A stretch of DNA of 64,000 bases from Patescibacteria group bacterium (GTDB lineage: Bacteria > Patescibacteriota > Minisyncoccia > Phycocordibacterales > PALSA-1337), in NCBI GenBank assembly GCA_018971685.1, contig JAGXAG010000001.1:90396-154395 (forward strand), read 5' to 3'. The notes below the pieces were generated by a model that was given only the letters and a program-made list of their open reading frames with translations, made no database searches and was not told the origin of the DNA. Both the position numbers and the translations under genes were made by a program. Shown here in pieces: positions 5,427 to 50,509 of this stretch (position 1 is the stretch's first letter; every line of letters begins with the position of its first letter).

Positions 5427-6554
5427 ATGAGATCAATAACTGAAATCGAATATTTCGATGGGGTTAAAATATTGGTGAGAGCGGACTTTAATGTGCCCAT
5501 AAAAAACGGCGCGGTGACTGATGATTTTCGCATAAGGACAGCTTTGCCGACCATTAATTTTCTTTGCGAAAAAGGGGCGAAAGTGATATTGATGAGCCAC
5601 TTAGAAGTCAAAGAAGGCGAAAAAGCAACACTGGCGCCGGTGGCCGAAGTGTTGAAGAAGCTTGGTCGGGAAGTCAAATTCATATCAAACATAAGAGATG
5701 CCAACGAATTCATAGACCATGAATTGGACAACGGCCAATGCGTCCTTTTGGAAAATCTTCGCTTGAATGAAGGCGAGAAGAAAAATGACCGTAAATTCGC
5801 CGAAGAATTGGCTTCGCTGGCCGACATATTCGTTAACGAGGCTTTCTCGGCTTGCCACAGGAAACACGCGTCGATCGTCGGTGTGCCCAAATTCTTGCCA
5901 AGTTATGCCGGTTTTCAGCTGGAAAAAGAAGTCAAGAATCTATCCCAAGCCTTCAACCCAGCGCATCCGTTCATTTTCATTTTGAGCGGCGCCAAATTCG
6001 AGACAAAATTGCCTTTGCTGGAAAAATTCTTGCGGATTGCGGATACGGTTTTTGTCGGCGGCGCGCTGGCTAACGACATATTCAAGGCCAAGGGCTATGA
6101 AACGGGAAGGTCGGTAGTGTCTGATGGAAGCGTTGATTTGTCGAAGTATTTAAGTAATCCGAAATTGACGGTGCCGGTTGATGTTGTTATCGAAAATAAT
6201 GAAATCAAGGCGCCGGATTTATTGGGCAAAGATGAGAAAATAGTCGATGCCGGGCCGGCGACGGTCGAATCGTTGCGCGGAAAAATAAATGCCGCCAAAT
6301 TTATTCTCTGGAACGGGCCGCTGGGGCTCTATGAAGACGGATTCACGGCCGCTACGGCCGGAGTGACGCGAATAGTTGCTGATCATACTTCCGAAAACAA
6401 AAATGTGATGTCGATCGTCGGCGGCGGCGATACGGTCGCGGCCATCGAATCGCTCGGCATTTCCGACAAGTTCACCTTTCTCTCCACCGGCGGCGGCGCG
6501 ATGCTCGATTTCCTCGCCCAAGGCAATTTGCCCGGGATTGAAGCGTTGGGCTGA
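5427..6554 (+). CDS. pgk: Phosphoglycerate kinase
   Basis: VLVRADFNVP N-terminal motif; full-length PGK (375 aa). Confidence 0.95.
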   Translation: MRSITEIEYFDGVKILVRADFNVPIKNGAVTDDFRIRTALPTINFLCEKGAKVILMSHLEVKEGEKATLAPVAEVLKKLGREVKFISNIRDANEFIDHELDNGQCVLLENLRLNEGEKKNDRKFAEELASLADIFVNEAFSACHRKHASIVGVPKFLPSYAGFQLEKEVKNLSQAFNPAHPFIFILSGAKFETKLPLLEKFLRIADTVFVGGALANDIFKAKGYETGRSVVSDGSVDLSKYLSNPKLTVPVDVVIENNEIKAPDLLGKDEKIVDAGPATVESLRGKINAAKFILWNGPLGLYEDGFTAATAGVTRIVADHTSENKNVMSIVGGGDTVAAIESLGISDKFTFLSTGGGAMLDFLAQGNLPGIEALG

Positions 6555-6597: not shown

Positions 6598-6981
6598 TTA
6601 TTGCACCAAAGCGGCAATAATCTTCTTTTTGTTCTCCTCAAAGTCATCTTTGTCACCATCGACTTCAGGGTTCGGAAACACCCAGATATGCGCGTGGGGA
6701 ACTTCATCGCCGACAATGCGGGAAAGAATCCAGTCAGTGCCAAAAGCTTTTTGTTGCGCCCTGGCGATCTTTTGCGCCACGGCGAAATAATCGCCAATGC
6801 CGCCTTTGCCGGTATTGGGCAGATCCCATACCCAGCGGTAATGTTTTTTCGGAATTACCTGCACATGGCCCGGCGCGCGCGGATGAATGTCTAGAAAAGC
6901 GATGAAATCGTCATCTTCGTAAACAATGTGCGCCGGAATTTCTTTATTGGCGATTTTGCAGAAAATGCAATCGGTTGACAT
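6598..6981 (-). CDS. HIT-family (histidine triad) nucleotide hydrolase
   Basis: N-terminus CIFCKI...; histidine triad HAHIWVFP. Confidence 0.85.
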   Translation of the reverse strand: MSTDCIFCKIANKEIPAHIVYEDDDFIAFLDIHPRAPGHVQVIPKKHYRWVWDLPNTGKGGIGDYFAVAQKIARAQQKAFGTDWILSRIVGDEVPHAHIWVFPNPEVDGDKDDFEENKKKIIAALVQ

Positions 6982-8801: not shown

Positions 8802-9286
8802 TTAAAATCTTTACGGATGGCTCGTCTCGAGGCAATCCCGGACCGGGAGGGTGGGGAGCAATAGTGCAGATCGAAAGTGAGAAGTCAAAAATGAAAAATG
8901 GCGGTGCGGCGACGAGAGAGCTGGGAGGGAGGGAAAATTCGACGACGAATAACAGAATGGAGTTAAAAGCGGCAATTGAAGCGCTAAGGTATGTTAAAAC
9001 ATTAAATATCGGCAGCGATGAAACGGTGGAAATCAATTCTGACTCGGAATATGTGGTTAAAGGCATGACGCAATGGATCTATGGTTGGAAAAGGAAAGGA
9101 TGGACAGGCAGCGCCAAGAAGCCGGTGATGAACAGGGACTTGTGGGAAGATCTCGATTTGGCCGCTTCAGGACTGAATGTTAGGTGGAATCATGTGGCCG
9201 GCCATTCCGGACATGCGGAAAATGAAAGATGCGATAAAATCGCCACCGATTTTGCCGACGGCAAGGAAATCGAACTGCAAGAATGA
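8798..9286 (+). CDS. rnhA: Ribonuclease HI
   Basis: MIKIFTDGSSRGNPGPGGWGAIV and C-terminal HSGHAENERCD motifs. Confidence 0.9.
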   Translation: MIKIFTDGSSRGNPGPGGWGAIVQIESEKSKMKNGGAATRELGGRENSTTNNRMELKAAIEALRYVKTLNIGSDETVEINSDSEYVVKGMTQWIYGWKRKGWTGSAKKPVMNRDLWEDLDLAASGLNVRWNHVAGHSGHAENERCDKIATDFADGKEIELQE

Positions 9287-9477
9287 TTTCCCCGTAACAA
9301 TATGTTCCGTTCCAACAAGTTCCAAATTGAATCGGGGATTTGGAGGTCGCCGTTTTTCATTTCGCGTAACTCCTTGAAAAGGAACACATTGTTGCGGGGA
9401 AATCATGCGTTTATCGGACAATTCGATGTTATCAAAATGTTATCAGTTCGTAATCGGACCGTAATCTCACTCTGATA

Positions 9478-9515: not shown

Positions 9516-10946
9516 ATGAGAAAGGGAATCACAATCTTCTGGTCTGTTTTCATTGCCGCGGCGATATTGCGGTTGGCCTTTTCGTTTTATTTAACGCCGC
9601 CCTTCATAGGATCGTGTCTGAAGCGAGAAATTATCGGCACCGGTATCATAACAACCGAGCCGGAACGGAAAGAGAGCGGCCAAATATTGGTAATCAGTAC
9701 CGACTCGATAAAACCGGCAAGCACTTCAACGGAAAATATTTCTTGCGGCGCCGGTTTTCAGATCCGCGCCAAAGCGAAGCTTTATCCGCTGTATTCATAC
9801 GGCGATCGCGTGGAATTCTCCGGGAAATTGTCGCAGCCGATGAATTTTGGGAGCGGCCGCGGCAGAGCGTTCGATTATCGTGGCTATCTGGCCAAAGATG
9901 ACATATTTTACGAGATTAAAAGCGCCAGTGTTAGAAAAATCTCGAATGGCGGCGGCATGGATTCGATCACGATGTTCGTAACTTCCGCGCTCTATAAGGT
10001 CAAAAGATGGTTTGTCGGCAACCTCGAACGCTCTCTCGGCGAACCGCACGCGGCGCTGGCGGCCGGATTGGTGGTGGGCGAAAAGAGCGCGCTCGGCAAA
10101 GATCTCCTAGCCGATTTTCGGACTGTGGGGCTGATACACATAGTCGTATTGTCAGGTTTCAATATCACTGTGGTCGCCGATGCGCTACGAAGATTGTTGT
10201 CGCGCCTGCCGCGGGTCTGGGGTATATTCGCCGGCGCGTTCGGCATTATTCTCTTTGGCGTGATGGTTGGCGGCGGCGCCACGGTCGTGCGTTCTTGCGC
10301 CATGGCGAGTGTGGCACTTTTCGCCAATCTGATAAGACGCGATTACAATGTGCCGCGCGCTCTGGCGTTCGCGGCGCTCTTGATGCTCATACAAAATCCT
10401 ATGATATTGCTACACGATCCGTCGTTCCAGCTGTCGTTCCTGGCGACGCTCGGTCTCATATTGTTGTCCGGTCCGATCGAAAAACGCATACAATTCTTGC
10501 CGGAAGTGTTCGGCATACGCGGCACGGTTGCGGCCACTTTTGCGACCCAGATTTTCGTTTCGCCCTATATTCTCTATATGATGGGCCAGCTTTCGCTGAT
10601 CGGCGTGGTCGTGAATATTCTGGTCTTGCCGCTCATTCCGCTTACGATGCTTGCGGTATTCTTGACCGGCGCGGCCGGCTTCGTCCTATCGCCACTGGGC
10701 CAATTACTGGGCTGGTTCGCGCACCTTCTGCTCTCCTACGAATTGTTCATGGTCGAATATTTCGCGCGCTTGCCTTTCGCGGCTGTCTTCGTACCGGCGT
10801 TTTCTTTCTGGTGGGTGGTAGGATTTTACACGGTATTCACGATCGCATGGTTATTTACGAGAAGAAGTAATCTTTACTGCTTATCAGTCTCTAATGAGAT
10901 TGACGCTGGCGGCCGAGCCGAATTTTCCGCTCTTAGAGAATCTTGA
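9516..10946 (+). CDS. comEC: DNA internalization competence protein ComEC/Rec2 (channel domain only)
   Basis: Competence domain motif FRTVGLIHIVVLSGFNITVV; polytopic membrane protein. Confidence 0.9.
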   Translation: MRKGITIFWSVFIAAAILRLAFSFYLTPPFIGSCLKREIIGTGIITTEPERKESGQILVISTDSIKPASTSTENISCGAGFQIRAKAKLYPLYSYGDRVEFSGKLSQPMNFGSGRGRAFDYRGYLAKDDIFYEIKSASVRKISNGGGMDSITMFVTSALYKVKRWFVGNLERSLGEPHAALAAGLVVGEKSALGKDLLADFRTVGLIHIVVLSGFNITVVADALRRLLSRLPRVWGIFAGAFGIILFGVMVGGGATVVRSCAMASVALFANLIRRDYNVPRALAFAALLMLIQNPMILLHDPSFQLSFLATLGLILLSGPIEKRIQFLPEVFGIRGTVAATFATQIFVSPYILYMMGQLSLIGVVVNILVLPLIPLTMLAVFLTGAAGFVLSPLGQLLGWFAHLLLSYELFMVEYFARLPFAAVFVPAFSFWWVVGFYTVFTIAWLFTRRSNLYCLSVSNEIDAGGRAEFSALRES

Positions 10947-11746: not shown

Positions 11747-12697
11747 ATGAAAATCATATCAAAACAATTCGCGATTGTCGCCGCCGCGATCTTGATAGCA
11801 TCCGGCGTCGGCGCTTATGCCTGGCGCATGGAACATCGGCCGCATGTTCTGGAAATATACGCGTTTTCGCTTGCGAGCGGCCGTTCGTATTTCATCCGTA
11901 CGCCGAACGACAAGCGCATCTTGGTTGACGGCGGCGCCAGTTCGGAAGTGATCCGCAATATCACGGAAATACTGCCTTTTTATTCGCGGCGCATAGATAT
12001 GATCATTACCACGAATTCCGACAGCAAGAATGTCGGCGGCCTGATAGACGCGCTTGGAAGATACAAAGTCGGCGAAGTGATCATCCCAAAATTCACGGCC
12101 GAATCGCTCGGCTTGGCGAGCTCGTCGGATCAGATCTATTCGACTTTTATCGATGCCGTGAATGAATCCGGAGCTCTTGTTAAGGAAGTCTCGGCCGGCG
12201 ATCTGGTTGTTTTTGACGGCGGAAATGTCGGAGATATTACCGCCGGTTATGATATTGACACCGGCAGCGATAAAGACGATCAAGCGATTGCGAGCATTCT
12301 GTTTCCCGTAAGTCCCGACTTGTTCCAGTATTCGAAAACGAGCGCGCCGGAAATAATCATGCGTTTAACTTACGGTAAAAATTCATTCTTTTTCTTGAAT
12401 GACGCTACGGTGAAAATACAAAAAGCGGTTGCTTTCCAAGGTCGGGCCTTGGAAAAAACGAATGTCCTGATCGTGTCTACAAGCGCTTTGCCGGCGAACC
12501 TGGCGGATGAGCTAACCGGCGTGATCAGGCCGGACTATCTGGTCTATTCGAAGAATACAAATGCCAGATCATCGGCATCGGCAAAAAACAAGACCACGGA
12601 TCCGCTCTACTATCTGCTGGATTCCAAAAGATTCAATATAAAAGAAAAGGGAATCGTGCGGATAATTTCCAACGGTTCGGAAGTGTCGATCGAGTGA
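11747..12697 (+). CDS. Membrane-anchored ComEC-type MBL-fold domain protein with a degenerate metal-binding motif
   Basis: Matches the ComEC C-terminal lactamase-like pattern (RILVDGGA...IDMIITTNSDSKNVGG) but TNSDSK replaces THxHxDH; N-terminal TM helix. Confidence 0.5.
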   Translation: MKIISKQFAIVAAAILIASGVGAYAWRMEHRPHVLEIYAFSLASGRSYFIRTPNDKRILVDGGASSEVIRNITEILPFYSRRIDMIITTNSDSKNVGGLIDALGRYKVGEVIIPKFTAESLGLASSSDQIYSTFIDAVNESGALVKEVSAGDLVVFDGGNVGDITAGYDIDTGSDKDDQAIASILFPVSPDLFQYSKTSAPEIIMRLTYGKNSFFFLNDATVKIQKAVAFQGRALEKTNVLIVSTSALPANLADELTGVIRPDYLVYSKNTNARSSASAKNKTTDPLYYLLDSKRFNIKEKGIVRIISNGSEVSIE

Positions 12698-12700
12698 TCG

Positions 12701-12943
12701 TCAAATAATGCCGGCGTCTCTCAGGGCGCGAAACGCACCTTTCTTTTCTATAGTGCGTAATCCTCTGGTGGAAGTGGTTATGACAACGGTCTTCTTCAAT
12801 TCGGGCACGAATACGCGTTTTTTCTGCAGATTGGGGTAACGGCGTACTTTGCCGCAAGGGTTGAATTGGGTGGCGCGGGTGCGGTTGGAATATCGTCCGC
12901 CGGTTTTCGAGCCGCGTTTGGTTATTTGGCAGATTTTGGCCAT
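12701..12943 (-). CDS. rpmB: 50S ribosomal protein L28
   Basis: MAKICQITKRG...RVFVPEL pattern typical of L28. Confidence 0.85.
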   Translation of the reverse strand: MAKICQITKRGSKTGGRYSNRTRATQFNPCGKVRRYPNLQKKRVFVPELKKTVVITTSTRGLRTIEKKGAFRALRDAGII

Positions 12944-13197
12944 GAAAGTTTATAAACAGTATGCTAGCATAAAGAAAGTGTTTTGGAAAGCACGACATTG
13001 TTTTTTGCGAATCTGCGGAACTCGCTTCCTAAATTTCTAGGCAAAAGCTCGCGGGATTGCTCGGCGCTCCGCATACGCTTTGCGCCGTAGCAATTCCGGC
13101 GAGAGCTCGCTTTTGCCAAGAAATTTATGGTCGCTCAGACAGGTCCTCGATTCGCAAAAAACGATGTCGTGCTTTCCAAAACGCTTTCTTTAACGCC

Positions 13198-13806
13198 ATG
13201 TTTACCATCATTTCAATCGTAATATTAATAATGTCCGTGATTATTCATGAACTGGCGCATGGATTCACGGCGAACGCGCTTGGCGATCCGACGGCGCGGC
13301 TTTCGGGCAGGCTGACTTTGAATCCGATAGCGCATATCGATCCGGTAGGGTCAATACTGGTGCCGCTGGTGACTTCGCTTTTCGGTTTTACTTTCGGCTG
13401 GGCGAAACCGGTGCCGTACAATCCGTACAACATCAAGAATAAGAGAACCGGCGAATTTCTGATCGCGGCGGCGGGACCGGCTTCGAATTTGTTGATCGCG
13501 ATTATCTTCGGCACTTTCATCCGTTTTGCGACCGCCGGCGCTACGACGATCACGCCTTTCATCGAGATTTCATCCTACATTGTTGTCATCAACATTATTC
13601 TGGCGATTTTCAATCTCATTCCTCTGCCGCCATTGGACGGTTCGAAACTTCTCTTTGCCATCCTTCCGAACCAATACGGCCGCACCCGCATGGTCCTCGA
13701 AGCCTATGCGCCGGTCTTCGTGCTCATTGTTGTCTTTTTCTTGTGGCAAATCGTGGCACCGGTTATTCCGGTCTTATTCAGGTTGTTAACGGGCATAGGG
13801 TTTTGA
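13198..13806 (+). CDS. Site-2 protease family (peptidase M50) membrane metalloprotease
   Basis: HELAHG HExxH motif in a TM helix, multiple TM segments, LDGSKLL; start taken at the internal MFTIISI because the upstream part of the ORF is non-coding-like. Confidence 0.8.
   Translation: MFTIISIVILIMSVIIHELAHGFTANALGDPTARLSGRLTLNPIAHIDPVGSILVPLVTSLFGFTFGWAKPVPYNPYNIKNKRTGEFLIAAAGPASNLLIAIIFGTFIRFATAGATTITPFIEISSYIVVINIILAIFNLIPLPPLDGSKLLFAILPNQYGRTRMVLEAYAPVFVLIVVFFLWQIVAPVIPVLFRLLTGIGF
13709..13795. repeat. Direct repeat copy 1 (3' end of the M50 gene)
   Basis: gccggtcttcgtgctcattgt...ggcaccggttattccg repeated at 14918-15003 at roughly 90% identity. Confidence 0.85.
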
Positions 13807-13875
13807 GCGATAATATAGCCATGGATGATGTCTTTGATGCCCAAGAATGGGACAGAGAGGTAGAGGATCCTTATC

Positions 13876-14085
13876 GTGCCCGATAACGATTATGAAGATT
13901 CGGAGCCGGACCGGATAGTATTGAAGTCAATGGCTAAGCTCATTAGTAATAATTATCCACAAGTGCCGAAAGAGAGTATCATAGGCCATTGCGAAGTGAA
14001 CAAGAATACGACATGTCCGGGAGAACGATTTTTACCGAGCTTAACCGATAAAGGGTGGAAGGAAAAATTACTGTCTCTCATTTGA
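13876..14085 (+). pseudogene. C-terminal remnant of an N-acetylmuramoyl-L-alanine amidase (Amidase_2/PGRP)
   Basis: IIGHCEV...TTCPGERF matches the Amidase_2 C-terminus; only about 69 aa are present, with no upstream domain. Confidence 0.55.
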
Positions 14086-14225
14086 ATACGATTATATGTC
14101 AATCTCCAAACTGAAGAACTACGCAATTTATTCCTCGATCTATTGACCTGATCGCGTGGGGTACGCCGGTTTTCCGGTGCACCATTTATGTTTGTCAAAA
14201 TGTCGTCGCGTGGTATCATTGCGTT

Positions 14226-14612
14226 ATGGATGAAGTCGTAAAATATTGGCTGGAAACGGCCGCTCATGATTATGAGACCATGGAAGCATTGCTAAAGACG
14301 GCCAGATATTCCGACGCCTTATTTTTCGGCCATATCATTCTGGAGAAGGCTTTTAAAGCTCTGATAGTTAAAAGGACAAAAGAACACGCGCCGTATGTGC
14401 ACAACCTATTGCAATTACAAGCTATTTCCGGCATACCGTTGAACGAGGACGACCTCAACTTGTTGGTCGAAGTGAACGATTTTAACATCCGGGCCAGATA
14501 TCCGGAGCAGAAATTGGCGTTTTACAAACAAGCCACCGAGGAATTCACGGGTGGATACATGACGCGAATCACGAATCTGTACAAAAAGCTATGTCAAACG
14601 GTGAAATCGTAA
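14226..14612 (+). CDS. HEPN domain protein (toxin component of a HEPN/MNT pair)
   Basis: HEPN-like helical protein with an R(X)4-6H-like IRARYPEQ region; overlaps the downstream MNT gene. Confidence 0.65.
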   Translation: MDEVVKYWLETAAHDYETMEALLKTARYSDALFFGHIILEKAFKALIVKRTKEHAPYVHNLLQLQAISGIPLNEDDLNLLVEVNDFNIRARYPEQKLAFYKQATEEFTGGYMTRITNLYKKLCQTVKS

Positions 14613-14905
14613 ACATTGTGAAGAAATACGGAGAAGGCCTGAGGAAAAACGGCATCGATTTCCAGGCGCTCTACCTTTTCGGTTCTTACGCCAAAGGGAA
14701 CAATAAAGATTGGAGCGACATAGATGTGGCGGTAGTGTCGGATTATCTTGACGATAAATACGATGAAGGCAGGTTTCTCCTCTGGAAGCTGACTCGCGCC
14801 GTGGATCTGCGTATAGAGCCGCACGGGTTCGCGCTTTCCGCATGGAACGATCCCAATAACCCGATGGCCCATGAGATAAAGAGCACTGGATTGAAAGTGG
14901 CATAG
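14591..14905 (+). CDS. Minimal nucleotidyltransferase (MNT) partner of the HEPN protein
   Basis: LFGSYAKG...SDIDVAV nucleotidyltransferase motif (GS...DxD). Confidence 0.75.
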   Translation: MSNGEIVNIVKKYGEGLRKNGIDFQALYLFGSYAKGNNKDWSDIDVAVVSDYLDDKYDEGRFLLWKLTRAVDLRIEPHGFALSAWNDPNNPMAHEIKSTGLKVA

Positions 14906-14917
14906 TATCAATCCAAA

Positions 14918-15003
14918 AAAGATCATTCGCCGGTCTTCGTGCTCATTGTCGTTTTCTTCTTGTGGCAGATCGTGGCACCGGTTATTCCGTTCGTTTTCAG
15001 GCT
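14918..15003. repeat. Direct repeat copy 2 (duplicate of the M50 3' end)
   Basis: Encodes PVFVLIVVFFLWQIVAPVIPFVFRLFTGTSF*, against the M50 C-terminus ...PVIPVLFRLLTGIGF*. Confidence 0.85.
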
Positions 15004-15086
15004 GTTTACCGGAACCAGTTTCTAATTTCCTTGACTTTTTGATGTTGAAGGCTATATTTAAGCCGAACCCTCAACAAAGGAGCTCG

Positions 15087-15440
15087 ATGAAAAAGAATCT
15101 TGTCGGAGTTGCGGCTGCCGGTACTTTGGTGGCACTGTTTGTCGCGATTTACAACGGTTGGTTTATCATGTCGCTTATATGCGTCACCTTTCAGGTCTCG
15201 TTGTTAATTGCGAAGAGAATGAATGACAACGAACTGCGTTATCGGTCACTCAGACGAGTTAACTCAGCGTACAGAGATCTTTTATCGTTACCAATGAATA
15301 CGGCTTACGATGAAAGGAGAAGACATATTGGCGTGTTTATGGATGAGGTAAGCAATCATCTCGCAAGATGGCCGGATGAAAAACGGTGTGGTTTTGAGAG
15401 GTGCAGATATCTTTTTTGTGAGATGGTGAATGACTGGTGA
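15087..15440 (+). CDS. Hypothetical small membrane protein
   Basis: AAGGAG RBS 6 nt upstream of the ATG; N-terminal TM helix; no recognisable domain; the upstream part of the listed ORF is a frame artefact of the duplicated M50 end. Confidence 0.35.
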   Translation: MKKNLVGVAAAGTLVALFVAIYNGWFIMSLICVTFQVSLLIAKRMNDNELRYRSLRRVNSAYRDLLSLPMNTAYDERRRHIGVFMDEVSNHLARWPDEKRCGFERCRYLFCEMVNDW

Positions 15441-15618
15441 TTTTCGAATCGCAACAGTAAGGCACGGTCTGAATCCGTCGCCTTGCTTTTTTTATTTGAA
15501 ATTGTTAGTGTATCACCACTGCTCCATAAGAGCACTTTATCAGGGCAAGAATGAGTAATCGCGGCACGCAAAACATTCAGGGACTAACGGGGCGGGCGGC
15601 GGTGAAAAAATTCAGACT

Positions 15619-16038
15619 ATGCCGACAATAAACCAACTTACGAAAAGAAACAGAAAGCGTTTCAGCCGGAAGTCAAAATCGGTCGCTTTGACGCGCACAT
15701 TCAATTCCATACAGAACCGCCCCGTTTTCTTCCCGGCGCCATTCAAGAGAGGCGTATGCGTGAAAGTCACCACCAAGACGCCGAAAAAGCCGAACTCTGC
15801 CATCAGAAAGATCGCCCGCGTGCGCTTGACCAACGGCATGGAAGTGACCGCGTATGTTCCTGGAATGGGACACAACTTGCAAGAACACGCCGTGGTTTTA
15901 TTGCGCGGCGGCCGCGTCAAAGATGTCGGCTTGCGTTATTCGATCGTACGCGGCGTGTTGGACTGCGCCGGCGTGGAAGCGAGGAGAAAGGGTAGGAGTC
16001 AGTATGGCAATAAGAGGCCGAAAGCGGCTAAGGCATAG
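15619..16038 (+). CDS. rpsL: 30S ribosomal protein S12
   Basis: MPTINQL...PKKPNSA(I)RK...VRGG conserved S12 motifs. Confidence 0.95.
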
Positions 16039-35197: not shown

Positions 35198-36436
35198 ATG
35201 ACTTACAAACATATATTCAATACGGCGATCAGAGGACTGTCGACCAACCGGTCGCGCTCTTTCCTGACGATTTTCGGCATAGTGATCGGCATCACGGCGA
35301 TCATGCTGGTGGTGTCTTTGGGCGCGGGCGCGCAGGATCTGATACTCGGCCAGGTGCAGGGTCTGGGCACGAATACCATAGCCGTTATTCCCGGCAGGGA
35401 ACCGACCGGACCGTCCGATGTGACCGCCCTATACAGCGACTCGCTCAAGGACAAGGACATAACCGCGCTCACCAATAAAGGCAATGTGCCGTATTTGAAA
35501 AGCATCATGCCCGTGGTCTTCGGCGCCGGCGCTTCGTCTTACGGTTCCAATACCTATCAAGTGACCATATTCGGCGGCACCGATCTCGTCGCCGAAGTAT
35601 TCGATCTGCATCCGTCCGAAGGCCAGTTTTTTGACGCCAGCGACGTGCCGTCCCGTTCAAATGTGGCGGTCATCGGTTCCGATGTCGTCGATCACTTGTT
35701 CGACGGGCAAGATCCTGTAGGGCAAAATATCAAAGTAAAGAGCCGGAACCTGCGCGTGGTGGGCGTATTGCCCAAGTCCGGCGGCGGCACTCTCTTCAAT
35801 TTCGATTCTATGGTCATAATGCCGTATACTACGGCGCAGGATTACATTCTGGGTCAGAAATATTTCAGCCGCATAATCATACAAACCGAGACGGATGCGG
35901 AAGTGGCGGTTACGGCCGAGGACATCAAGCTCACCCTACGGGATTCTCACGGGATCACCGATCCGACCAAGGACGACTTTACGGTCCAAACACAGCAGGA
36001 TCTGGCCAACAGGCTGGGAACGATCACTTCGGCGCTCACCTGGTTCCTGGTGGCGGTGGCATCAATCGCGCTTTTTGTCGGCGGCGTCGGCATCATGAAT
36101 ATCATGCTGGTGGCGGTGACGGAACGCACGCGGGAGATCGGCCTTCGGAAAGCGCTGGGCGCGACGGATCGCGATATTCTGTCGCAATTCTTGCTGGAAG
36201 CGGTCTTGCTCACGGCGATCGGCGGAGCGATCGGGATATTCTTGGGGACGGTGTTAGCGTTCGTGATCTCGGTCGGCCTTTCGAAAGGCCTGGGCGTGAA
36301 CTGGCAGTATGTTTTCCCTTGGGGCGGCGCGCTCTTGGGTTTCGGCGTGTCGGCGCTCGTCGGTCTTGTTTTCGGCGGCTATCCGGCCAGCCAAGCGAGC
36401 AAAAAGAGTCCGATCGAGGCGTTACGGTATGAGTGA
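35198..36436 (+). CDS. ABC transporter permease, FtsX-like (MacB-type)
   Basis: MacB_PCD-like periplasmic domain plus the C-terminal four-TM FtsX domain. Confidence 0.85.
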   Translation: MTYKHIFNTAIRGLSTNRSRSFLTIFGIVIGITAIMLVVSLGAGAQDLILGQVQGLGTNTIAVIPGREPTGPSDVTALYSDSLKDKDITALTNKGNVPYLKSIMPVVFGAGASSYGSNTYQVTIFGGTDLVAEVFDLHPSEGQFFDASDVPSRSNVAVIGSDVVDHLFDGQDPVGQNIKVKSRNLRVVGVLPKSGGGTLFNFDSMVIMPYTTAQDYILGQKYFSRIIIQTETDAEVAVTAEDIKLTLRDSHGITDPTKDDFTVQTQQDLANRLGTITSALTWFLVAVASIALFVGGVGIMNIMLVAVTERTREIGLRKALGATDRDILSQFLLEAVLLTAIGGAIGIFLGTVLAFVISVGLSKGLGVNWQYVFPWGGALLGFGVSALVGLVFGGYPASQASKKSPIEALRYE

Positions 36437-36437
36437 G
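36375..36437. repeat. Left copy of the ~63-bp direct repeat (permease 3' end) bounding the DGR island
   Basis: ggcggctatccggccagccaagcgagcaaaaagagtccgatcga... repeated at 42331-42393 (44 nt identical, then 5 mismatches); both encode GGYPASQASKKSPIEALRYE*. Confidence 0.9.
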
Positions 36438-36552
36438 GCATTGTTCCAAGTTTTCTCTTTCATATAAAATAATAACGGCGATCTTAAAGACGCTTAAATT
36501 ATCCACAGGTAAATCTTAAATTCGGCGTTGTTTTTTTGTTATAATTTGATTC

Positions 36553-37572
36553 ATGAAGAGAGCGATTGTCATGATTTCTTTCGGTTCGGTATTGATTCTT
36601 ACCCCGTTTTTTGAGGTTATGGCGGCTGGGTATGGAGATACCGGTTGGGGGATAACGGCTACGGTTACCAATGCATGGCAAAGCGTAGTATGTACGGTGG
36701 GATCGTGGATGTCGATAGCCCCGGCGTATTGCGGTTATGAAGAGAAAGCGGCCAACAAACCGACAGTACCAAAGACACCGTCATTAAACACCGTCATTTC
36801 CCGTGATTCAATCGGCTCAAGGCAAATCGCCGAACCGGTTCAAACATCACGGTTTTTGTCACCGACGGTGCCGTCTGTATCAGGTAAGGCCGATATCCAA
36901 TCGATAGTGAACGAAGCCGTAGCTGTGGCTTTATCTAAACTCCAGATCCCCGCCAACCAATCGCCAAGTCCCGCCGATATCACCGGTCGCGCATCGACTT
37001 CCCCAACCAATTATGCCAATACTATTCCACCGGACATATACCGTTTTGTTTCCGATCAGGCCTCATCGAACGGTTACAGTGCAGGTCAAGCCGTATCGAA
37101 CAGTGCATCGGCCATAACCTCCGCATATACTTCCGCCATATCAGACGCCGTTACCGGCGGGCTTACCGCCTTCGATGGTTCGACTCTGCATGCGGGTACA
37201 AGCACCTTAGGCCAACTTACGGCAGGATCAACCACACTCTCAAGCCTAAATGTATCCGGAAATGCTGCCGTAACAGGCGCTCTCACTGTCGGTTCTCTGG
37301 TTTCGGGCGGTCAGACCATAGGAGGTAACTTCGGTGTTAGTGGCACGACCACCCTAGCTACTACAACGGTTAGCAATCTATCGGCTTCAACTATGAGTAT
37401 TGGTTCATTGAGCGGTATACTATATGGGAACAATGGGATTGTCGGGACTACCAGTTTGTCCAGTCTCACTTCAAACATTATATCCACACAAGGCAATACT
37501 ATAACTTCAAATATAAACGGTGTACAGGCTAGCGCCTTATTGCCGTATGCGTCGGCTTCGAGCGACGGTTAG
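36553..37572 (+). CDS. N-terminal part of the DGR target protein (signal peptide plus S/T-rich repeat region), ended by an in-frame TAG
   Basis: Signal peptide MKRAIVMISFGSVLILTPFFEVMAAG; the TAGSTTLSSLNVSG repeat continues as TAGSTTLSSLSVTG in the next ORF, in the same frame. Confidence 0.5.
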   Translation: MKRAIVMISFGSVLILTPFFEVMAAGYGDTGWGITATVTNAWQSVVCTVGSWMSIAPAYCGYEEKAANKPTVPKTPSLNTVISRDSIGSRQIAEPVQTSRFLSPTVPSVSGKADIQSIVNEAVAVALSKLQIPANQSPSPADITGRASTSPTNYANTIPPDIYRFVSDQASSNGYSAGQAVSNSASAITSAYTSAISDAVTGGLTAFDGSTLHAGTSTLGQLTAGSTTLSSLNVSGNAAVTGALTVGSLVSGGQTIGGNFGVSGTTTLATTTVSNLSASTMSIGSLSGILYGNNGIVGTTSLSSLTSNIISTQGNTITSNINGVQASALLPYASASSDG

Positions 37573-37623
37573 GTTTCCACCACCACCCAGTCATTTTCCG
37601 GTAACAAGAATTTCTCAGGATCA

Positions 37624-38457
37624 TTGACGGCAGGTTCGACCACACTATCATCGCTGTCAGTCACAGGTTCGACATCTTTGGCGTCGCTTGCAGTCAGCGG
37701 CGTTACGGCATTGTCAGGTCCTCTTACGGTCTCTCTCGGTAGCCTGTCCGGGTCTGATACTTATTATGATATGAGTAAAATAGCAAATTACAATCAAATG
37801 TCCATAAGCTCCGGACAGATACAACTGTCTCTGGCGTGGACTTGTGGAAGTCACACTCTGGTAGGCCCAGACGGTTTGACCTATGGTACTGTCGTCGGGG
37901 CTGACGGCAACTGCTGGCTGGACAGGAACCTAGGCGCTACGGAAGTAGCCACAGCCTACAACGATGCCAATGCATATGGTTACTACTATCAATGGGGACG
38001 CGGTATGGATGGCCACCAGATATCTACCAGTTTGACCACAAATACTCTATCCTCCACTGACCAGCCGGGCAACAGCAATTTCATATTGGCGCCAAGCTCT
38101 CCTTATGACTGGCGTAGTCCGCAGAATAACAATCTATGGCAAGGAGCGTCGGGAGTAAACAATCCTTGTCCGAATGGATTCCGCTTGCCGACTAACCAGG
38201 AATGGTCGAACCTGGTATCGGCGGCGGGAATTACCGATTACTCAACAGCTTTCAGTTCCTCATTGAAACTAACACTAGCCGGCGACCGCGACTACTCCTC
38301 CGGTAGTCTCAGCCCTCAGGGAGGTTTCGGTCTCTACTGGTCGAGCTCAGTCTCCGGTGCGAATGCTTTCTCCCTGTACTTCAGCTCTTCCGGGGTTAGC
38401 CCTTCGTACTCGTACTACCGGGCCTACGGCTTCTCGGTTCGTTGTATAAAGAATTGA
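37624..38457 (+). CDS. DGR variable (target) protein with a C-type-lectin/FGE-like fold and C-terminal VR
   Basis: TTG start in frame with the upstream ORF; C-terminal ...YWSSSVSGANAFSLYFSSSGVSPSYSYYRAYGFSVRCIKN is a variable-repeat copy of the TR. Confidence 0.75.
   Translation: MTAGSTTLSSLSVTGSTSLASLAVSGVTALSGPLTVSLGSLSGSDTYYDMSKIANYNQMSISSGQIQLSLAWTCGSHTLVGPDGLTYGTVVGADGNCWLDRNLGATEVATAYNDANAYGYYYQWGRGMDGHQISTSLTTNTLSSTDQPGNSNFILAPSSPYDWRSPQNNNLWQGASGVNNPCPNGFRLPTNQEWSNLVSAAGITDYSTAFSSSLKLTLAGDRDYSSGSLSPQGGFGLYWSSSVSGANAFSLYFSSSGVSPSYSYYRAYGFSVRCIKN
38277..38451 (+). repeat. DGR variable repeat (VR)
   Basis: About 170 nt homologous to the TR; 19 mismatches, every one at a TR adenine; 3' ends identical (ggcttctcggttcgttgtataaag). 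Confidence 0.85.
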
Positions 38458-38486
38458 CAATTTATCAATTTGACAATTAAAAAATT

Positions 38487-39209
38487 ATGGCGCTCTACTA
38501 CACATTGCCGATATACAAATCTAGTTACAAACTTGCTTTCTTGTTGTTCGATGCCTCTACCCATTTTGCCAGAGAGTATAAATATACTGTTGGTCAGCAA
38601 TTGAAAGACGAAGCGATGAAATTGGTTAAAAATGTGTATAGAGCCAATAAAGCTATTGATAAAAATTGTGCCATAAATGAGGCGAGAGAAAATGCGGAAA
38701 TGATACGGCTGATGGTCCGTCTGATGAAGGATTTCAATCAGCTTAGCCTGAAAAAATTCCTGGAAATCAATCTGTGCATAGAAGATGTGTCCAAGCAACT
38801 CACTTCTTGGGGAAAGAGCTTTAGGACAAAATTATCAATACCGCCTGAATCGTCTGTAGCCAGAGCCCAGACGAGCGTGCGGAGCAAATTCAATGGCCCC
38901 CTTGCCTCATCAGGCAAGGAATATCGTCCGGATCACGGATGTGTTTCGCCGTCCCGTACTCATGGGGAAGGTGCGACAAATACAGAGGCCATAATCACAG
39001 TAGCCGGCTACCGCGACAACTCCTCCGGTAGTCTCAACAATCAGGGAGGTAACGGTAACTACTGGTCGAGCTCAGTCTCCGGTACGAATGCTTTCAACCT
39101 GAACTTCAACTCTTCCGGGGTTAACCCTTCGAACACGAACAACCGGGCCAACGGCTTCTCGGTTCGTTGTATAAAGCATTTGCAAATAGCGTATGAAAAA
39201 GTCAATTAA
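38487..39209 (+). CDS. avd: Avd-like accessory variability determinant (first ~115 aa) in an ORF that reads through the TR
   Basis: Helical, basic N-terminal part (about 115 aa) at the position of Avd; the rest of the ORF is TR sequence in an open frame. Confidence 0.5.
   Translation: MALYYTLPIYKSSYKLAFLLFDASTHFAREYKYTVGQQLKDEAMKLVKNVYRANKAIDKNCAINEARENAEMIRLMVRLMKDFNQLSLKKFLEINLCIEDVSKQLTSWGKSFRTKLSIPPESSVARAQTSVRSKFNGPLASSGKEYRPDHGCVSPSRTHGEGATNTEAIITVAGYRDNSSGSLNNQGGNGNYWSSSVSGTNAFNLNFNSSGVNPSNTNNRANGFSVRCIKHLQIAYEKVN
39002..39176 (+). repeat. DGR template repeat (TR)
   Basis: Adenine-rich (AAC codons: NNQGGNGNYW...NLNFN...NTNNRAN) counterpart of the VR, immediately upstream of the RT. 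Confidence 0.85.
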
Positions 39210-40377
39210 CGACAACCCGCAACTACTTTTGAACTTGTTCAAGGCATATTATGATGCCCGTAGGCACAAGGGTTTGTCTGCCAATGTTCTGGCTTTTTCG
39301 GCTGATTATGAGAGCAAATTATTCAAACTCTATGAAGATATTCTAGATCGAAGATATGTCATAGGGCCAAGCGTATGCTTCATCGTCAATCGGCCGGTAA
39401 AGCGAGAAATATTCGCCGCCGACTTTCGCGACAGGGTTGTTCATCATCTAATATTCAATTATCTCAATCCTATAGTTGAGAGAGATTTTATAAAGGATAG
39501 TTATAGTTGCAGATTGGGGAAAGGCACTTCTTATGGCGTGCGCAGAGTTAATCATTTTCTGCATTCTTGCTCAGAGAACTATACTCACGAGTGTTGGATC
39601 ATGAAACTGGATATACGAGGTTACTTTATGTCTATGAATAAAGATATTCTATACGGCAAGGTAAAAGAAGTCGTCGATAAGGCGAGAAATATATCTTTTG
39701 ACAAGGAACTCCTCATGTATCTGGTGAATAAAGTTGTATACCACGATCCTGTCACTAATTGTCGTATAAAAGGCGACAGATCAGACTGGGTGGGATTGCC
39801 AAAATCAAAAAGTTTGTTTTTCGCCGAAAAGAACCGAGGATTTCCTATAGGGAATCTCACTAGTCAACTATTCGGGAATATATACATGAATAGGTTCGAC
39901 CATATAATAAAGGAAGATCACAATTTTAAGCATTATGGCCGATATGTTGATGATATGATCTTCGTGCATAAAGACAAGGGGACATTGGCGTCCACGATCC
40001 CGATCGTAAAAAAGTATCTTTTTGAAGAACTTGGGTTGGAATTACATACCAAAAAGATATATTTACAGCCGTCTGCTGTCGGTGTTAGCTTTTTGGGGGC
40101 TTACATAAAGCGATGGTGCCAATATGTCGGAAAAAAGACCAAGACTAATTGTTATACTAGAATCAGTAGGTGGAATTCAGAAGTTAATAAAAACAGCTAC
40201 GACAAGTTTTTATCTTCGATGAATTCATATCTTGGATTTATGAGCCAATACGATACTTATAGGCTTCGCCAGAAAGTCATGTCAAAATTAAGCCGCCAGA
40301 TTGTATCGAAACTGATCATTTCCAAAGATTTTTCTTCGATAAAAATAAATTCTGCAGCGAATACATTACGAACATGA
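39193..40377 (+). CDS. DGR reverse transcriptase
   Basis: RT domain with the IGNLTSQ motif characteristic of DGR RTs and YVDDMIF (YxDD) in the catalytic box; adjacent TR/VR. Confidence 0.9.
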   Translation: MKKSINDNPQLLLNLFKAYYDARRHKGLSANVLAFSADYESKLFKLYEDILDRRYVIGPSVCFIVNRPVKREIFAADFRDRVVHHLIFNYLNPIVERDFIKDSYSCRLGKGTSYGVRRVNHFLHSCSENYTHECWIMKLDIRGYFMSMNKDILYGKVKEVVDKARNISFDKELLMYLVNKVVYHDPVTNCRIKGDRSDWVGLPKSKSLFFAEKNRGFPIGNLTSQLFGNIYMNRFDHIIKEDHNFKHYGRYVDDMIFVHKDKGTLASTIPIVKKYLFEELGLELHTKKIYLQPSAVGVSFLGAYIKRWCQYVGKKTKTNCYTRISRWNSEVNKNSYDKFLSSMNSYLGFMSQYDTYRLRQKVMSKLSRQIVSKLIISKDFSSIKINSAANTLRT

Positions 40378-42326
40378 GAAACAAGCCATCAACAATTCGA
40401 GCGATTGTCACGACGGTTATTATACCAGCAATAGGATTTGCAATACTTTTAGGTATGACGCCAGCCATGGTTATGGCTTCCGCGACCTACTTTTCTTCCG
40501 GTACTGTCAGCTCGACTAACTTACTATCAGGCAGCACAGCATCGTCCATAAACGACTTCTATTACAACTTGTCATCTCTTCCGGGCAACTCAAGTGTTAC
40601 GGTCCAATTCAGCCAAGACGGAACAAATTGGTATTCGGCCGCCGGTACGCTCAACGCTTCCACGAGTATTTCTACCATCGGCGGGGCTACGATCGATCTG
40701 TCAGCTTTGCACTGGTCCGGTTCGTCTTTCTACTATAAGTTTACTTTCTATGCCACTACCGATCAAACCGGCACGCCGGTCATAAACGGAGTCAGAGTCG
40801 ATTATTCGACATCCGGTTCGAATGGCGGCATATTCGCCATAAATAACGGCGGCCACATAGCGGTGGGTACGACTTCTGCCCTGTCGACTCTCGACATAGC
40901 GGGCGGTACAGCCATAGGGACTTATGCCGGCACCGCCGCCGCTCCCAATAACAGTTTGATATTGAGCGGTTTTTTGGGCGTGGGTACTTCTACTCCATCC
41001 AGCAAACTTACCGTGGCGGGAGACGGTTATCTATCCGGCAATCTGACGGTCAACGGCTCGCTCAGCGTGGCTGGTTCTCTATTCCAGATCAACTCTAACG
41101 GAACTTTTACGGCGTCGAGCACGCAAGCTTCGGCGGCTACATCCACCGTATACGGCAATCTCAATGTTACCGGCAACCTGCACGGCCAGACTATTACTTC
41201 GGGCGATCTTGTATTCGCGAACGCTTTCCGGTTCACTGAAGCGCGGCTCGACGGTTCACCACAAGGTATTTTGCTCAAGAATCAGTATGGTTCGACAACT
41301 TTGTCTGTAGATGAGAACGGCAATCTAACCGTTTTGGGCGACATATGTTCCAATGGGAATGTTTCATGTTGGGGCAGATCCATAGTCGATCTGAACAGCG
41401 GCCTAGCTTCTCTGGCTTCATCTACCATGCTTGATATATCCGCCAATGCCGCTTCTACTACGAGGTCGATGTCCGAACTATCTTCAGATATCGACAAGAT
41501 CGACTGGTCTTTGAATCGTGTGTCTTCGAGGTTAGATGCACTGGCTTCATCCAGTCTGACTATGTCCGCTCTGGCCTCGGCCACCGATGCCATGGCCTCT
41601 TCGGCCGGATCGATCTTGGCTTCTTCGACATCGTTCATCCAGAGCGTATCCCAAGCCGTTAACAGCGCCATCCAGTCCACAGGTCAATGGCTTGCGAACC
41701 AAATAACGGTTGCCAAGGGTATCTTTACCGAGCTTACAGCCGGCAAGGCTGACATTCAGACGGCCAATATTCAAACGCTCTGTATCGGCCAGACTTGCGT
41801 GTCAGAGAGCCAATTCAAGGCGATGTTGGCGCACGAGAATGTGACGCCGGTCCAACCATCCCCGATGTCGGCGCAGAGCAGTTCGACGAACATTACGACT
41901 GATACTGCGACAGCTCCCGCTGCCACGACCGCTTCTACGACAATGCCTGCGGCTGTGTCGGCAGGTACCTCTATAATTGCAACTTCATCCACTGACCGGG
42001 CAGATCAGACAGCGACCACTTCTGTAGGCGTTGTTCCCGCGGCTTCTACGACATCAGCCACGATCATGGTTTCGGAAGCTTCCGGAACATCGACTGCCGC
42101 CGCGGTATCAGAGACTTCAACCACTTCAACGGCAACGGTTTATACAACTCTGCCGATCATGAGTTCGACCACTACGGTATCTGCCCCGGTTGAACCGGCG
42201 GCATCGTCCGTTTCCGAATCGTCGACCACGGCGGTCGACCGTGTTTCCGCGGCTCCCACACCAATCACAGATATGACTACCACCGGCACCGCTCCTGCGC
42301 AGGCGTCAACTTCAGCGGCCCACTAA
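40374..42326 (+). CDS. Large S/T-rich surface protein (fibre-like), co-transcribed with the RT
   Basis: N-terminal TM anchor; G/S/T-rich beta-repeat region (LTVNGSLSVAGS...); T/S/A-rich C-terminus; the ATG overlaps the RT stop (ATGA). Confidence 0.6.
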   Translation: MRNKPSTIRAIVTTVIIPAIGFAILLGMTPAMVMASATYFSSGTVSSTNLLSGSTASSINDFYYNLSSLPGNSSVTVQFSQDGTNWYSAAGTLNASTSISTIGGATIDLSALHWSGSSFYYKFTFYATTDQTGTPVINGVRVDYSTSGSNGGIFAINNGGHIAVGTTSALSTLDIAGGTAIGTYAGTAAAPNNSLILSGFLGVGTSTPSSKLTVAGDGYLSGNLTVNGSLSVAGSLFQINSNGTFTASSTQASAATSTVYGNLNVTGNLHGQTITSGDLVFANAFRFTEARLDGSPQGILLKNQYGSTTLSVDENGNLTVLGDICSNGNVSCWGRSIVDLNSGLASLASSTMLDISANAASTTRSMSELSSDIDKIDWSLNRVSSRLDALASSSLTMSALASATDAMASSAGSILASSTSFIQSVSQAVNSAIQSTGQWLANQITVAKGIFTELTAGKADIQTANIQTLCIGQTCVSESQFKAMLAHENVTPVQPSPMSAQSSSTNITTDTATAPAATTASTTMPAAVSAGTSIIATSSTDRADQTATTSVGVVPAASTTSATIMVSEASGTSTAAAVSETSTTSTATVYTTLPIMSSTTTVSAPVEPAASSVSESSTTAVDRVSAAPTPITDMTTTGTAPAQASTSAAH

Positions 42327-42330
42327 GAGT

Positions 42331-42393
42331 GGCGGCGGCTATCCGGCCAGCCAAGCGAGCAAAAAGAGTCCGATCGAAGCCCTCCGGTATGAG
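42331..42393. repeat. Right copy of the direct repeat bounding the DGR island
   Basis: See 36375-36437. Confidence 0.9.
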
Positions 42394-42682
42394 TGATTGA
42401 AATTTCGCGCGATGTCAGCCGATAAACCATTCGTGGGCCGGCACGATCTCTATTTTTGCGCCATCGAGTTCAATAACCTCTTTCCAGAAATTTATTATGT
42501 CTCTTATTTTTTCGTCGTTTTTTGTGGTCATGTTTAAGTCAAGTATATGTTACTAAATACTATAAAATAAGTCAAGTATACATGACTTATTTGTAAATCT
42601 CTCAAGAAATCCAAGTATTAAGCCATTTTTTGTCATTTTTTTATCGCAATTAATTAACAGTGACTATTATTGTGCGCATCAA

Positions 42683-47130: not shown

Positions 47131-47209
47131 AATCGCGCTTCGTTGCCGACTTTTATGGTGTAAGAAATGTCTTTGCGGAATTTGCGCCTGACACTATAAT
47201 AGAGGAACG

Positions 47210-49198: not shown

Positions 49199-49246
49199 GA
49201 GCAACTTTTTTATCAAAGGCGAAGTAATATATGTATTATAAAGGTA

Positions 49247-49843
49247 ATGACAAAAACAAACATGGCAAACAAAAATAAAGAAATATTGAAGATCGCAATA
49301 ATTATAGGTAGCACCAGGCCGGGCAGATTTGGCGACAAGCCGGCCAAGTGGATATACGAAGAGGCGAAAAGAACGGACGGGGTAGAGGCGGAATTGCTGG
49401 ATTTGCGGGATTATCCGATGCCTTTTTACGCCGAAGACCATTCGTTCAGCATGAATCCGGCGGTTTCCGACCAAACGGCGGAGAAATGGCAGGCGAAAAT
49501 CGGCGCGGCGGACGCTTTTGTCATCGTCACGCCGGAATACAACCACGGCCCCTCGGCAGTCTTGAAGAACGCGCTCGACTATGCGTACCGCGAATGGAAC
49601 GACAAGCCGGTTGCTTTCGTCGCTTATGGCAGTGTGGGCGGCGCCCGCGCGGTGGAACAATTGCGGCTGGTCGCGATCGAACTGCAAATGGCGCCGATCC
49701 GAAACGCGGTGCACATTCCGGCGCCGTGGTTCTTGGTTGACGGCAAAGGCGATCTGAAGCCGAATGCCCTGGATCCATTCAAGGACGCGGCAAAAAATAT
49801 GCTGGAACAACTGGTAAGATGGGGGAGGGTGATGAAAAGATAG
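49247..49843 (+). CDS. NAD(P)H-dependent FMN reductase (flavodoxin-like, SsuE/YieF family)
   Basis: IAIIIGSTRPGRF... and VIVTPEYNHGPSAVLKNALDY motifs. Confidence 0.8.
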   Translation: MTKTNMANKNKEILKIAIIIGSTRPGRFGDKPAKWIYEEAKRTDGVEAELLDLRDYPMPFYAEDHSFSMNPAVSDQTAEKWQAKIGAADAFVIVTPEYNHGPSAVLKNALDYAYREWNDKPVAFVAYGSVGGARAVEQLRLVAIELQMAPIRNAVHIPAPWFLVDGKGDLKPNALDPFKDAAKNMLEQLVRWGRVMKR

Positions 49844-50214
49844 ATTCAGAGCTAGATAAAGGGTGGGTACAAATTGTACATACCCTTAGCATAAACACTG
49901 CAGGAGGGACGCTGAAAGTGCTTTGTGCCAATACCGAGGGCATATTCCGCATCATTCAATCTATTCCATCGCCCAAGGCTGAGCCGTTCAAACGCTGGCT
50001 GGCGAGGGTTGGCTACGAGCGCATTCAGGAGATTGAAGACCCGGAGCTGGCCACCAAGCGCACCCGCGCCCTTTATAAAGCCAAGGGCTATGATGATGCC
50101 TGGATCGAGAAGCGCATGCGCGGTATTGCCGTTCGCGAAAAATTGACCGATGAGTGGCAGAAACGGGGGATTAGACTCTCAGGATTCGCGACCTATTGTC
50201 GTAAATTCAGTTGA
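49819..50214 (+). pseudogene. Remnant of a Bro-N/DinD-like (phage antirepressor-type) protein lacking its N-terminus
   Basis: SPKAEPFKRWLA resembles the Bro-N KPEAKxFKRWV motif; the first ~60 aa of the domain are missing; overlaps the end of the FMN reductase gene. Confidence 0.35.
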
Positions 50215-50277
50215 GTCCGCAATCCACAAGGAATTGCGGTGTGCAGATTTTATTTTCGGTATCTACACAGTTGACCG

Positions 50278-50508: not shown

Positions 50509-50509
50509 G

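Follow-up and report, generated by a model that had tools for sequence, protein, structure and literature searches.

We analysed a 64,000-nt stretch of the genome of an uncultured Patescibacteria group bacterium (contig JAGXAG010000001.1 of assembly GCA_018971685.1; the whole stretch is referred to as the window, and coordinates are counted from its first letter). At the 3' end of its site-2 (M50) protease gene the window carries a small islet, made up of the remnant of an amidase gene and a HEPN/MNT toxin-antitoxin pair, which is enclosed by two copies of the end of the protease gene. We propose that the islet is a decayed integrative element resembling the cis-mobilisable elements (CIMEs) of Firmicutes, derived from a single crossover inside the end of the M50 gene, and we place the probability of this reading at about one half. 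In this model, a small integrative element would enter by one reciprocal (Campbell-type) crossover in the last ~33 M50 codons, the incoming DNA carrying its own copy of those codons through the stop codon, which would keep the protease gene whole and leave a second, unused gene end beyond the inserted DNA. The element would then decay, with a lysis-type amidase gene being reduced to its last ~75 codons and the recombinase gene disappearing, while the toxin-antitoxin pair, which may be able to stabilise itself, would persist. A second island of the window, which holds a diversity-generating retroelement (DGR) at the end of an FtsX-type permease gene, may have formed likewise. What we infer is the topology of a single crossover, the earlier presence of a site-specific recombinase and the order in which the element decayed; a single crossover would account for repeats that are gene termini and end on the right at the stop codon, for a target gene that stays intact, for two functional-type copies and for an arbitrary left boundary. 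The islet and its target gene comprise the following features.

13198..13806, + strand: site-2 (M50) protease gene, intact, 202 aa (PF02163, E 2e-15; start codon ATG at 13198; the NCBI gene call has the same span)
13706..13806, + strand: repeat copy 1, the final 33 codons and stop codon (TGA, 13804-13806) of the working M50 gene; attL-like
13852..14085, + strand: Amidase_2 gene remnant, C-terminal ~75 codons only (phmmer and tblastn)
14226..14612, + strand: HEPN-domain gene, putative toxin, 128 aa (PF05168, E 3.5e-14)
14591..14905, + strand: MNT nucleotidyltransferase gene, putative antitoxin, 104 aa (PF18765, E 1.8e-9; PF01909, E 1.4e-8)
14925..15025, + strand: repeat copy 2, a detached M50 3' end of 33 codons and TAA (15023-15025), in no gene; attR-like

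The two gene ends form a direct repeat, detected concordantly by repeat search, MAFFT alignment and self-BLAST, in which positions 13706-13793 and 14925-15012 are 88% identical over 88 nt (89% over the 82-nt core given by self-BLAST, E 5e-22). Aligned in register, the repeat reaches both stop codons, with 83 of 101 positions identical. M50 orthologues are 200-202 aa long and end at the same residue as the protein of the window. The original prediction, which was made from the sequence alone, had described an insertion at the 3' end of the M50 gene, with the gene end present twice at ~90% identity, and our self-comparison agrees with it; the repeat is real, and only the limits proposed for copy 2 (14918-15003) lay ~7-9 nt too far to the left, which is a minor correction. 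Translated in the M50 frame, copy 2 reads ...HSPVFVLIVVFFLWQIVAPVIPFVFRLFTGTSF*, and its C-terminal end, …FVFRLFTGTSF, differs from that of copy 1, …VLFRLLTGIGF. The in-frame stop codon of the MNT gene lies 7 codons upstream of copy 2, where only the last 33 M50 codons are found. Therefore, copy 2 is a fragment that encodes an alternative C-terminus, as had been predicted, and a second M50 paralogue is ruled out by the presence of just 33 codons. From 14903 to 14927 the MNT frame is also the frame of copy 2, with one TAG and six sense codons in between, and read-through of the TAG would fuse MNT to a membrane helix, which is probably a coincidence. The stretch between the repeats measures 1,118 nt (13807-14924). 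The G+C content of the spacer, 0.42-0.46, is below the 0.48-0.57 of its flanks.

The window comes from a metagenome-assembled genome (MAG), and an assembler might have placed two strain variants of the M50 end in series. This explanation is scarcely credible, as distinct genes fill the 1.1 kb between the copies and the structure of the islet is base-for-base the same in five independently assembled contigs (two NCBI MAG assemblies and three Logan contigs, from different runs), which argues that it is not an assembly artefact. Furthermore, a contig of the Patescibacteria MAG GCA_028865255.1 matches the window at 100% identity, and the islet proteins carry accessions from further MAG records.

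The DGR island had been predicted to have the same architecture as the islet, and this was confirmed by the features listed here.

35198-36436, + strand: FtsX/MacB-type permease gene, the full gene to the left of the DGR island
36373..36436, + strand: repeat copy 1 of the DGR island, the last 20 codons and stop codon of the permease gene
36437..42332, + strand: DGR island, lacking a recombinase, with a Ser/Thr-rich surface protein, the DGR target gene, Avd, reverse transcriptase and a 650-aa surface protein
42333..42396, + strand: repeat copy 2 of the DGR island, a detached FtsX 3' end with an unchanged peptide

The FtsX repeat is 64 nt long and 94% identical, both copies end in TGA, and the second copy lies 5,960 nt downstream of the first, across a spacer of 5,896 nt. 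The two large open reading frames (ORFs) of the island are, from their sequences, Ser/Thr-rich surface proteins, and the Ser/Thr-rich protein is described as being of the secreted/surface type. A third case was found in a relative (locus L003, CAVYBN010000008.1), in which a repeat of 25 nt, taken from the end of its own M50 gene and containing the stop codon, occurs at 5612-5636 and 6660-6684; the copies are identical at 24 of 25 positions, none of 200 shuffles was as good, and the repeat encloses a DUF3800 gene only (310 aa, PF12686, 6.6e-9). In three independent cases, i.e. M50 and FtsX in the window and M50 in L003, the repeats are thus terminal codons ending at the stop codon. Apart from a duplicated hairpin in L012 that is described below, a scan for gene-end repeats in 105 loci (~1 Mb) returned only these three, and none was present in the M50-rpsL spacers of the other relatives. 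In L003, a RelB/YafQ pair follows the repeat, and the left junction is partly matched once more (ATAGGCCT) ~45 nt before the second repeat. To the right of the DGR island, 286 nt (42397-42682) separate repeat copy 2 from the histidine-kinase gene; this segment, which contains a 38-aa ORF on the - strand and the palindrome AAGTCAAGTATA...TATACATGACTT, is missing in relatives with an empty site (gaps of 3-42 nt), and may be either an extension of the DGR island past the repeat or a second small insertion.

The differences between the copies carry the argument for the origin of the second gene end. The M50 copies have 18 nt differences in 15 codons, 9 of which are synonymous (the stop-to-stop change included) and 6 non-synonymous, and random substitution gives this synonymous pattern together with an intact frame in 0.07% of trials (P = 7e-4). 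The FtsX copies have 4 nt differences, all synonymous, and encode the same peptide, as do only 0.27% of random mutants. Scored against a C-terminal profile of 119 orthologues, copy 1 reaches 104.7 and copy 2 reaches 101.6, whereas copy 1 with an equal number of random substitutions scores 37.5 +/- 13.3 and none of 20,000 such mutants attains the score of copy 2. The replacements in copy 2 are mostly residues that are common among the orthologues (F22, V23, F27 and S31), with the exception of T30, which is not among the common residues. The profile scores and the synonymous bias indicate that the incoming DNA brought its own gene end, and that no local duplication followed by decay took place. 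In both islands the incoming DNA bore a genuine, selection-shaped copy of the end of its target gene, and these results establish that both gene-end copies are foreign and of a functional type.

The same results bear on a local duplication of the target at insertion, either as a long target-site duplication or by a replication slip, after which copy 2 would have drifted as a pseudogene. Such an event would produce direct repeats that flank the insert exactly and a copy 2 that lies outside any gene. We strongly disfavour it and consider it very improbable, because copy 2 scores as well as the working copy in the profile and beyond the reach of random mutants, its amino-acid changes are mostly to orthologue-common residues, its differences from copy 1 are mostly synonymous with a stop kept as a stop, the FtsX peptides are identical despite 4 nt changes, and neither a transposase nor terminal inverted repeats are present. 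In the two pairs together, 12 of the 18 differing codons are synonymous, compared with ~40% by a hand estimate even if only copy 2 drifts freely and selection still acts on copy 1 (binomial P ~0.02). A target-site duplication by a transposon or insertion sequence was rejected on the same grounds, i.e. no transposase, no terminal inverted repeats, and copies that differ like two selected alleles.

The intact, functional-looking C-terminus of copy 2, and the ability of direct repeats of 64-101 nt to recombine, would also be expected if copy 2 were kept as a silent cassette, with recombination swapping the C-terminal membrane segment of the protease and deleting the toxin-antitoxin islet. This idea has very little probability in our view, since such recombination is a deletion and hence irreversible, the identical FtsX peptides leave nothing to switch, and no M50 variant with another C-terminus occurs in the protein collection, in which the M50 cluster consists only of 189-aa and 202-aa start-site versions.

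Which of the two M50 copies represents the original gene end is a separate matter. Compared with both copies, the nearest relative (L082, 85% aa identity) is a mosaic, in which the middle of the stretch is consensus-like in copy 2 and the extreme end in copy 1, and the last codons of copy 1 (TGIGF, TGA) fit the nearest relatives better than those of copy 2. The original prediction had taken copy 2 to be the displaced original end; this agrees with the right flank, which is native as described below, and disagrees with the closer resemblance of the last codons of copy 1 to the relatives.

The right flank of the islet is formed by the following genes.

15087..15440, + strand: ORF117, hypothetical membrane protein (36% identity, E 3e-10, to a 127-aa ORF in the same spacer of relative L105)
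15619..16038, + strand: rpsL (S12), the conserved right neighbour of the hot spot

The gene order in the window is SOD (- strand), a 316-aa ORF, rpmB (- strand), M50, amidase remnant, HEPN, MNT, copy 2, ORF117, rpsL, rpsG and fusA, on the + strand unless stated, and the synteny SOD-ORF316-rpmB-M50-rpsL-rpsG-fusA is kept across Paceibacteria-type genomes. The presence of a homologue of ORF117 in the L105 spacer indicates that the right flank is native, and that the insert landed between M50 and a native ORF. Uninterrupted junctions, which had been named as a check of the prediction, were found in relatives for both islands. Five relatives (L005, L008, L009, L012 and L013) have an empty M50 site, with an M50-rpsL gap of ~80-190 bp and an M50 protein that is only 48-67% identical to that of the window. 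For the DGR island there are three (L098, 87% aa identity, and L107/L108, 80%), in which FtsX abuts a convergent histidine-kinase gene at a distance of 42 nt in L098 and 3 nt in L107/L108, followed by rpsS. The M50-rpsL gap is ~420-580 bp in L002, L004, L007 and L083, and ~1.0-2.3 kb in L105, L011, L006 and L003. The spacer of L003 contains the DUF3800 gene and the RelB/YafQ pair, that of L006 a HicB-like (UPF0150)/HicA pair together with other ORFs, and those of L001, L011 and L105 ORFs without an assigned family; a RelE-like nature of the L011 ORFs was not confirmed by Pfam. L084 and L086 are identical to L083 and L085, respectively, and hence do not provide separate contexts. The M50-rpsL junction is a recurrent landing pad for toxin-antitoxin modules, a conclusion that follows from two scars within 64 kb and a third at the M50 gene of a relative.

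The cargo had been predicted to consist of a C-terminal amidase fragment, a HEPN gene and an overlapping MNT gene, which Pfam and phmmer bear out. The homology of the amidase piece spans 13852/13867-14082 (13852/13867 being where tblastn sets its start), beginning ~46 nt past the M50 stop codon; an in-frame stop lies at 13861-13863, and nothing recognisable by tblastn lies upstream. Against the Pfam Amidase_2 model the piece obtains 15.1 bits (E 0.03), below the cut-off of 26, and covers profile positions 85-131 of 131. Phmmer retrieved 45 proteins, 8 of them at E <1e-10, and the alignments (E 1e-16 to 1e-9) extend over the final 70-77 residues of proteins of 170-255 aa whose Amidase_2 membership is clear. 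The piece corresponds to the last ~30% of a gene whose N-terminal 95-175 codons are absent and, as judged from these alignments, is a remnant rather than a gene. The cargo is of accessory type, and the truncation of the amidase gene argues for decay. The HEPN and MNT genes are adjacent, as is expected of a HEPN/MNT toxin-antitoxin system, and overlap by 22 nt. The MNT protein contains the motif GSx10DID (sequence GSYAKGNNKDWSDID), which fits GSx9-13Dx[DE], and obtains 41.8 bits against the NCBIfam equivalog model for the type VII antitoxin MntA, below the cut-off of 60. In the HEPN protein a strict Rx4-6H motif is not evident, the nearest arrangement being R50/K52...H58, with spacings outside or at the edge of that range. 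Outside this population, the nearest HEPN-MNT pair is that of L092, whose similarity to the window is limited to the two genes (14211-14905); this suggests that the two-gene module is the evolutionary unit and that the amidase piece is incidental. A promoter-like site precedes the HEPN gene at 14192-14219; the promoter and terminator scan gave no enrichment over shuffled sequence, and no Rfam families were found in 12600-15800.

Several results weigh against a decayed integrative element. No recombinase, integrase or transposase was found with Pfam, NCBIfam and PHROGs among the ORFs of either island, and no recombinase among ten other unassigned ORFs of the window. Searches of 80 genome loci, ~26 of them from Patescibacteria, which is a limited sample, yielded no intact related element, the ~26 Patescibacteria loci yielded no integrase adjacent to M50, and viral contigs yielded nothing with HEPN, MNT, M50, the DGR reverse transcriptase or the two longest identical stretches of the repeats. 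The repeats are of unequal length (101 nt at M50, 64 nt at FtsX and 25 nt in L003), are just 82-94% identical, which is lower than usual for attachment (att) sites, and no motif of at least 9 nt is common to the three islands, their repeats and ends included. The L092 pair, which is 70% identical to that of the window, lies in an unrelated context without flanking repeats, and the M50 islet is the same in every available genome and contig of the population, with no record of a polymorphic empty site or an excised form. The common site-specific insertion mechanism suggested in the original prediction, together with the core motifs that were to be sought at the repeat boundaries of both islands, consequently finds no backing, as there is no recombinase, no shared motif of at least 9 nt and no terminal inverted repeat at any of the three repeat-bearing islands, and the repeats differ in length. 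A phage origin of the islet has no support, and PHROGs gave no match for any island protein. An integron cassette was likewise rejected, since there is no inverted repeat at the cassette ends and no integrase in the island or the tested ORFs of the window. No tRNA genes occur in the 64-kb window.

The absence of a recombinase, the unequal lengths of the repeats and the truncation of the amidase gene speak rather for an explanation without any dedicated recombinase, which we consider possible, if rather doubtful. In this explanation, the M50-rpsL hot spot would turn over by general recombination with DNA of related strains, taken up for instance by natural transformation, for which a ComEC gene 3 kb upstream offers a possible route. 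The left join would be homologous, inside M50, and the right join illegitimate or unequal, 101 nt upstream of the recipient stop codon, with the end of the recipient gene being left over; the repeat would stop at the stop codon as donor and recipient share no similarity past it. It would fit the lack of a common core among the repeats, copies that differ by 6-18% and mostly synonymously, as orthologues of closely related lineages would, and the spacers of the relatives, which hold RelB/YafQ (L003), HicAB (L006) and other genes (L001, L011, L083 and L105), mostly without a repeat. Moreover, non-homologous joins do happen here, as is seen from the truncated amidase gene. Hot spots flanked by core genes are known (PMC5635113), and transformation is able to produce merodiploid duplications (PMC3784515). 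Against this explanation, all three of the three repeat-bearing cases duplicate exactly a gene terminus, and the 25-nt repeat of L003 is very short for RecA-dependent pairing. The donor would, furthermore, already have to hold the cargo right behind the M50 stop codon, which shifts the question one step back. As far as we know, the outcome of homology-facilitated illegitimate recombination of the classical kind is that recipient DNA is replaced or lost, without being duplicated, which we also count against a process without a dedicated recombinase. The restriction to gene termini, the short L003 repeat and the poor fit of such recombination to duplications therefore lean towards the decayed integrative element. 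On the other side, many hot spots between core genes reportedly lack mobile-element genes, which would fit a process without a dedicated recombinase.

A more speculative and improbable reading is that Patescibacteria insert small cassettes, such as toxin-antitoxin pairs, DGRs and single genes like that for DUF3800, into the 3' ends of conserved genes, and remove them again, without an element-encoded integrase. Each cassette would carry a short imitation of the last codons of its target, and would be inserted by the general recombination of the cell once DNA has been taken up, or else by a trans-acting recombinase that has so far escaped recognition, for which the repeat-flanked DUF3800 gene of L003 is a candidate. 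Such an integrase-free mechanism, if true, would bear on how toxin-antitoxin modules and DGRs spread in Patescibacteria, a group in which we know of few recognised mobile elements.

A decayed integrative islet at a gene 3' end is of a known kind, and its architecture is familiar; the novelty lies in the group to which the host belongs, in the genes that serve as targets and in the toxin-antitoxin landing pad that recurs ahead of the str operon. The genes for the M50 site-2 protease and the FtsX-type permease are, to our knowledge, not among the reported integration targets. An integrase, which marks integrative and conjugative elements (ICEs), integrative and mobilisable elements (IMEs) and prophages, is lacking in the islet and is by definition absent in a CIME. 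Both IMEs and ICEs insert in the 3' ends of housekeeping genes, with one flanking repeat holding the gene end, and the CIMEs of Firmicutes have kept attL and attR after the loss of the integrase (PMC5704250). The islet resembles these elements (PMC5704250) in its accessory or defence-type cargo, in having kept attL/attR-like ends while its integration genes are gone, and in the successive accretion at one site, for which the repeat-flanked DUF3800 gene of L003, followed by RelB/YafQ, may be compared. It differs from them in its Patescibacteria host as opposed to Firmicutes, in its tiny size (1.1 kb), in repeats that are long and only 82-94% identical, and in that no related intact integrase-bearing element is known for the M50 site. 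As in the islands and prophages of tRNA, tmRNA or dusA genes (PMC4482086), a replacement is provided for the displaced part of the gene and a partial copy lies at the far end; those islands, however, have a tyrosine integrase next to att, where we found no integrase, and the dusA islands hit the 5' end of their target. The M50|rpsL and FtsX|histidine kinase|rpsS junctions hold different accessory genes in each lineage, with no recognisable mobility gene among the tested spacer ORFs, and in both respects resemble core-gene hot spots (PMC5635113), although replacement by flanking homology alone, as in the latter, makes no duplicated gene ends. The microcin H47 island of Escherichia coli (PMC3191183, PMC5426353) is likewise small, bounded by direct repeats and without an encoded site-specific recombinase, and deletions between short direct repeats with a relation to this island are ascribed to RecA-independent recombination (PMC5426353); its host, unlike ours, is an enterobacterium. 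The toxin-antitoxin pair is similar to type II/VII MntA/HepT-like HEPN/MNT modules in its overlapping genes and the GSx10DxD motif of MNT, and departs from typical modules in that the HEPN gene comes first, the MntA model is below its cut-off and the strict HEPN motif is not evident.

The islet shows how the reduced genome of an uncultured member of Patescibacteria acquires defence-type genes, which lodge at the ends of conserved genes beside ribosomal-protein operons while the target gene is kept intact. From the DGR island it is seen that a complete diversity-generating retroelement can be gained in a single block together with its target genes.

Some further observations concern the surroundings of the two islands. 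The translation-gene blocks of the window are broken by accessory genes at M50|rpsL, in the fusA|tuf region, at L2|S19 and at L5|S8, and these interruptions at several junctions suggest that core-gene junctions are general landing sites in this genome. At L5|S8, ~5.4 kb of accessory genes (47131-52526) split the ribosomal-protein cluster; they encode a PIF1-like helicase (47210-49198), an FMN reductase, a Bro-N domain protein and, on the - strand, an unknown protein of 387 aa, and no flanking direct repeat of at least 17 nt was found around them. In L107 the same junction holds three small ORFs, one of them holin-like. The ComEC-type competence gene upstream of the islet is located at 9516-10946. 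In L012, a hairpin that resembles a terminator and includes a T-run (…CTCGCG…CGCGAGATTTTTT) occurs in two copies (46 nt, 89% identity) around an 87-aa ORF (967-1416); the layout looks like an insertion, but what is present twice is a terminator instead of the end of a coding sequence. Finally, a near-perfect hairpin of ~230 nt (12967-13196) fills the gap between rpmB (- strand) and the start codon of the M50 gene, with 44-nt arms of 95% complementarity, nested 19-nt arms and a DNA fold of -87 kcal/mol (z = -14 relative to shuffles), and further long palindromes that are unrelated to it lie at 57793-57938 and 9283-9406.

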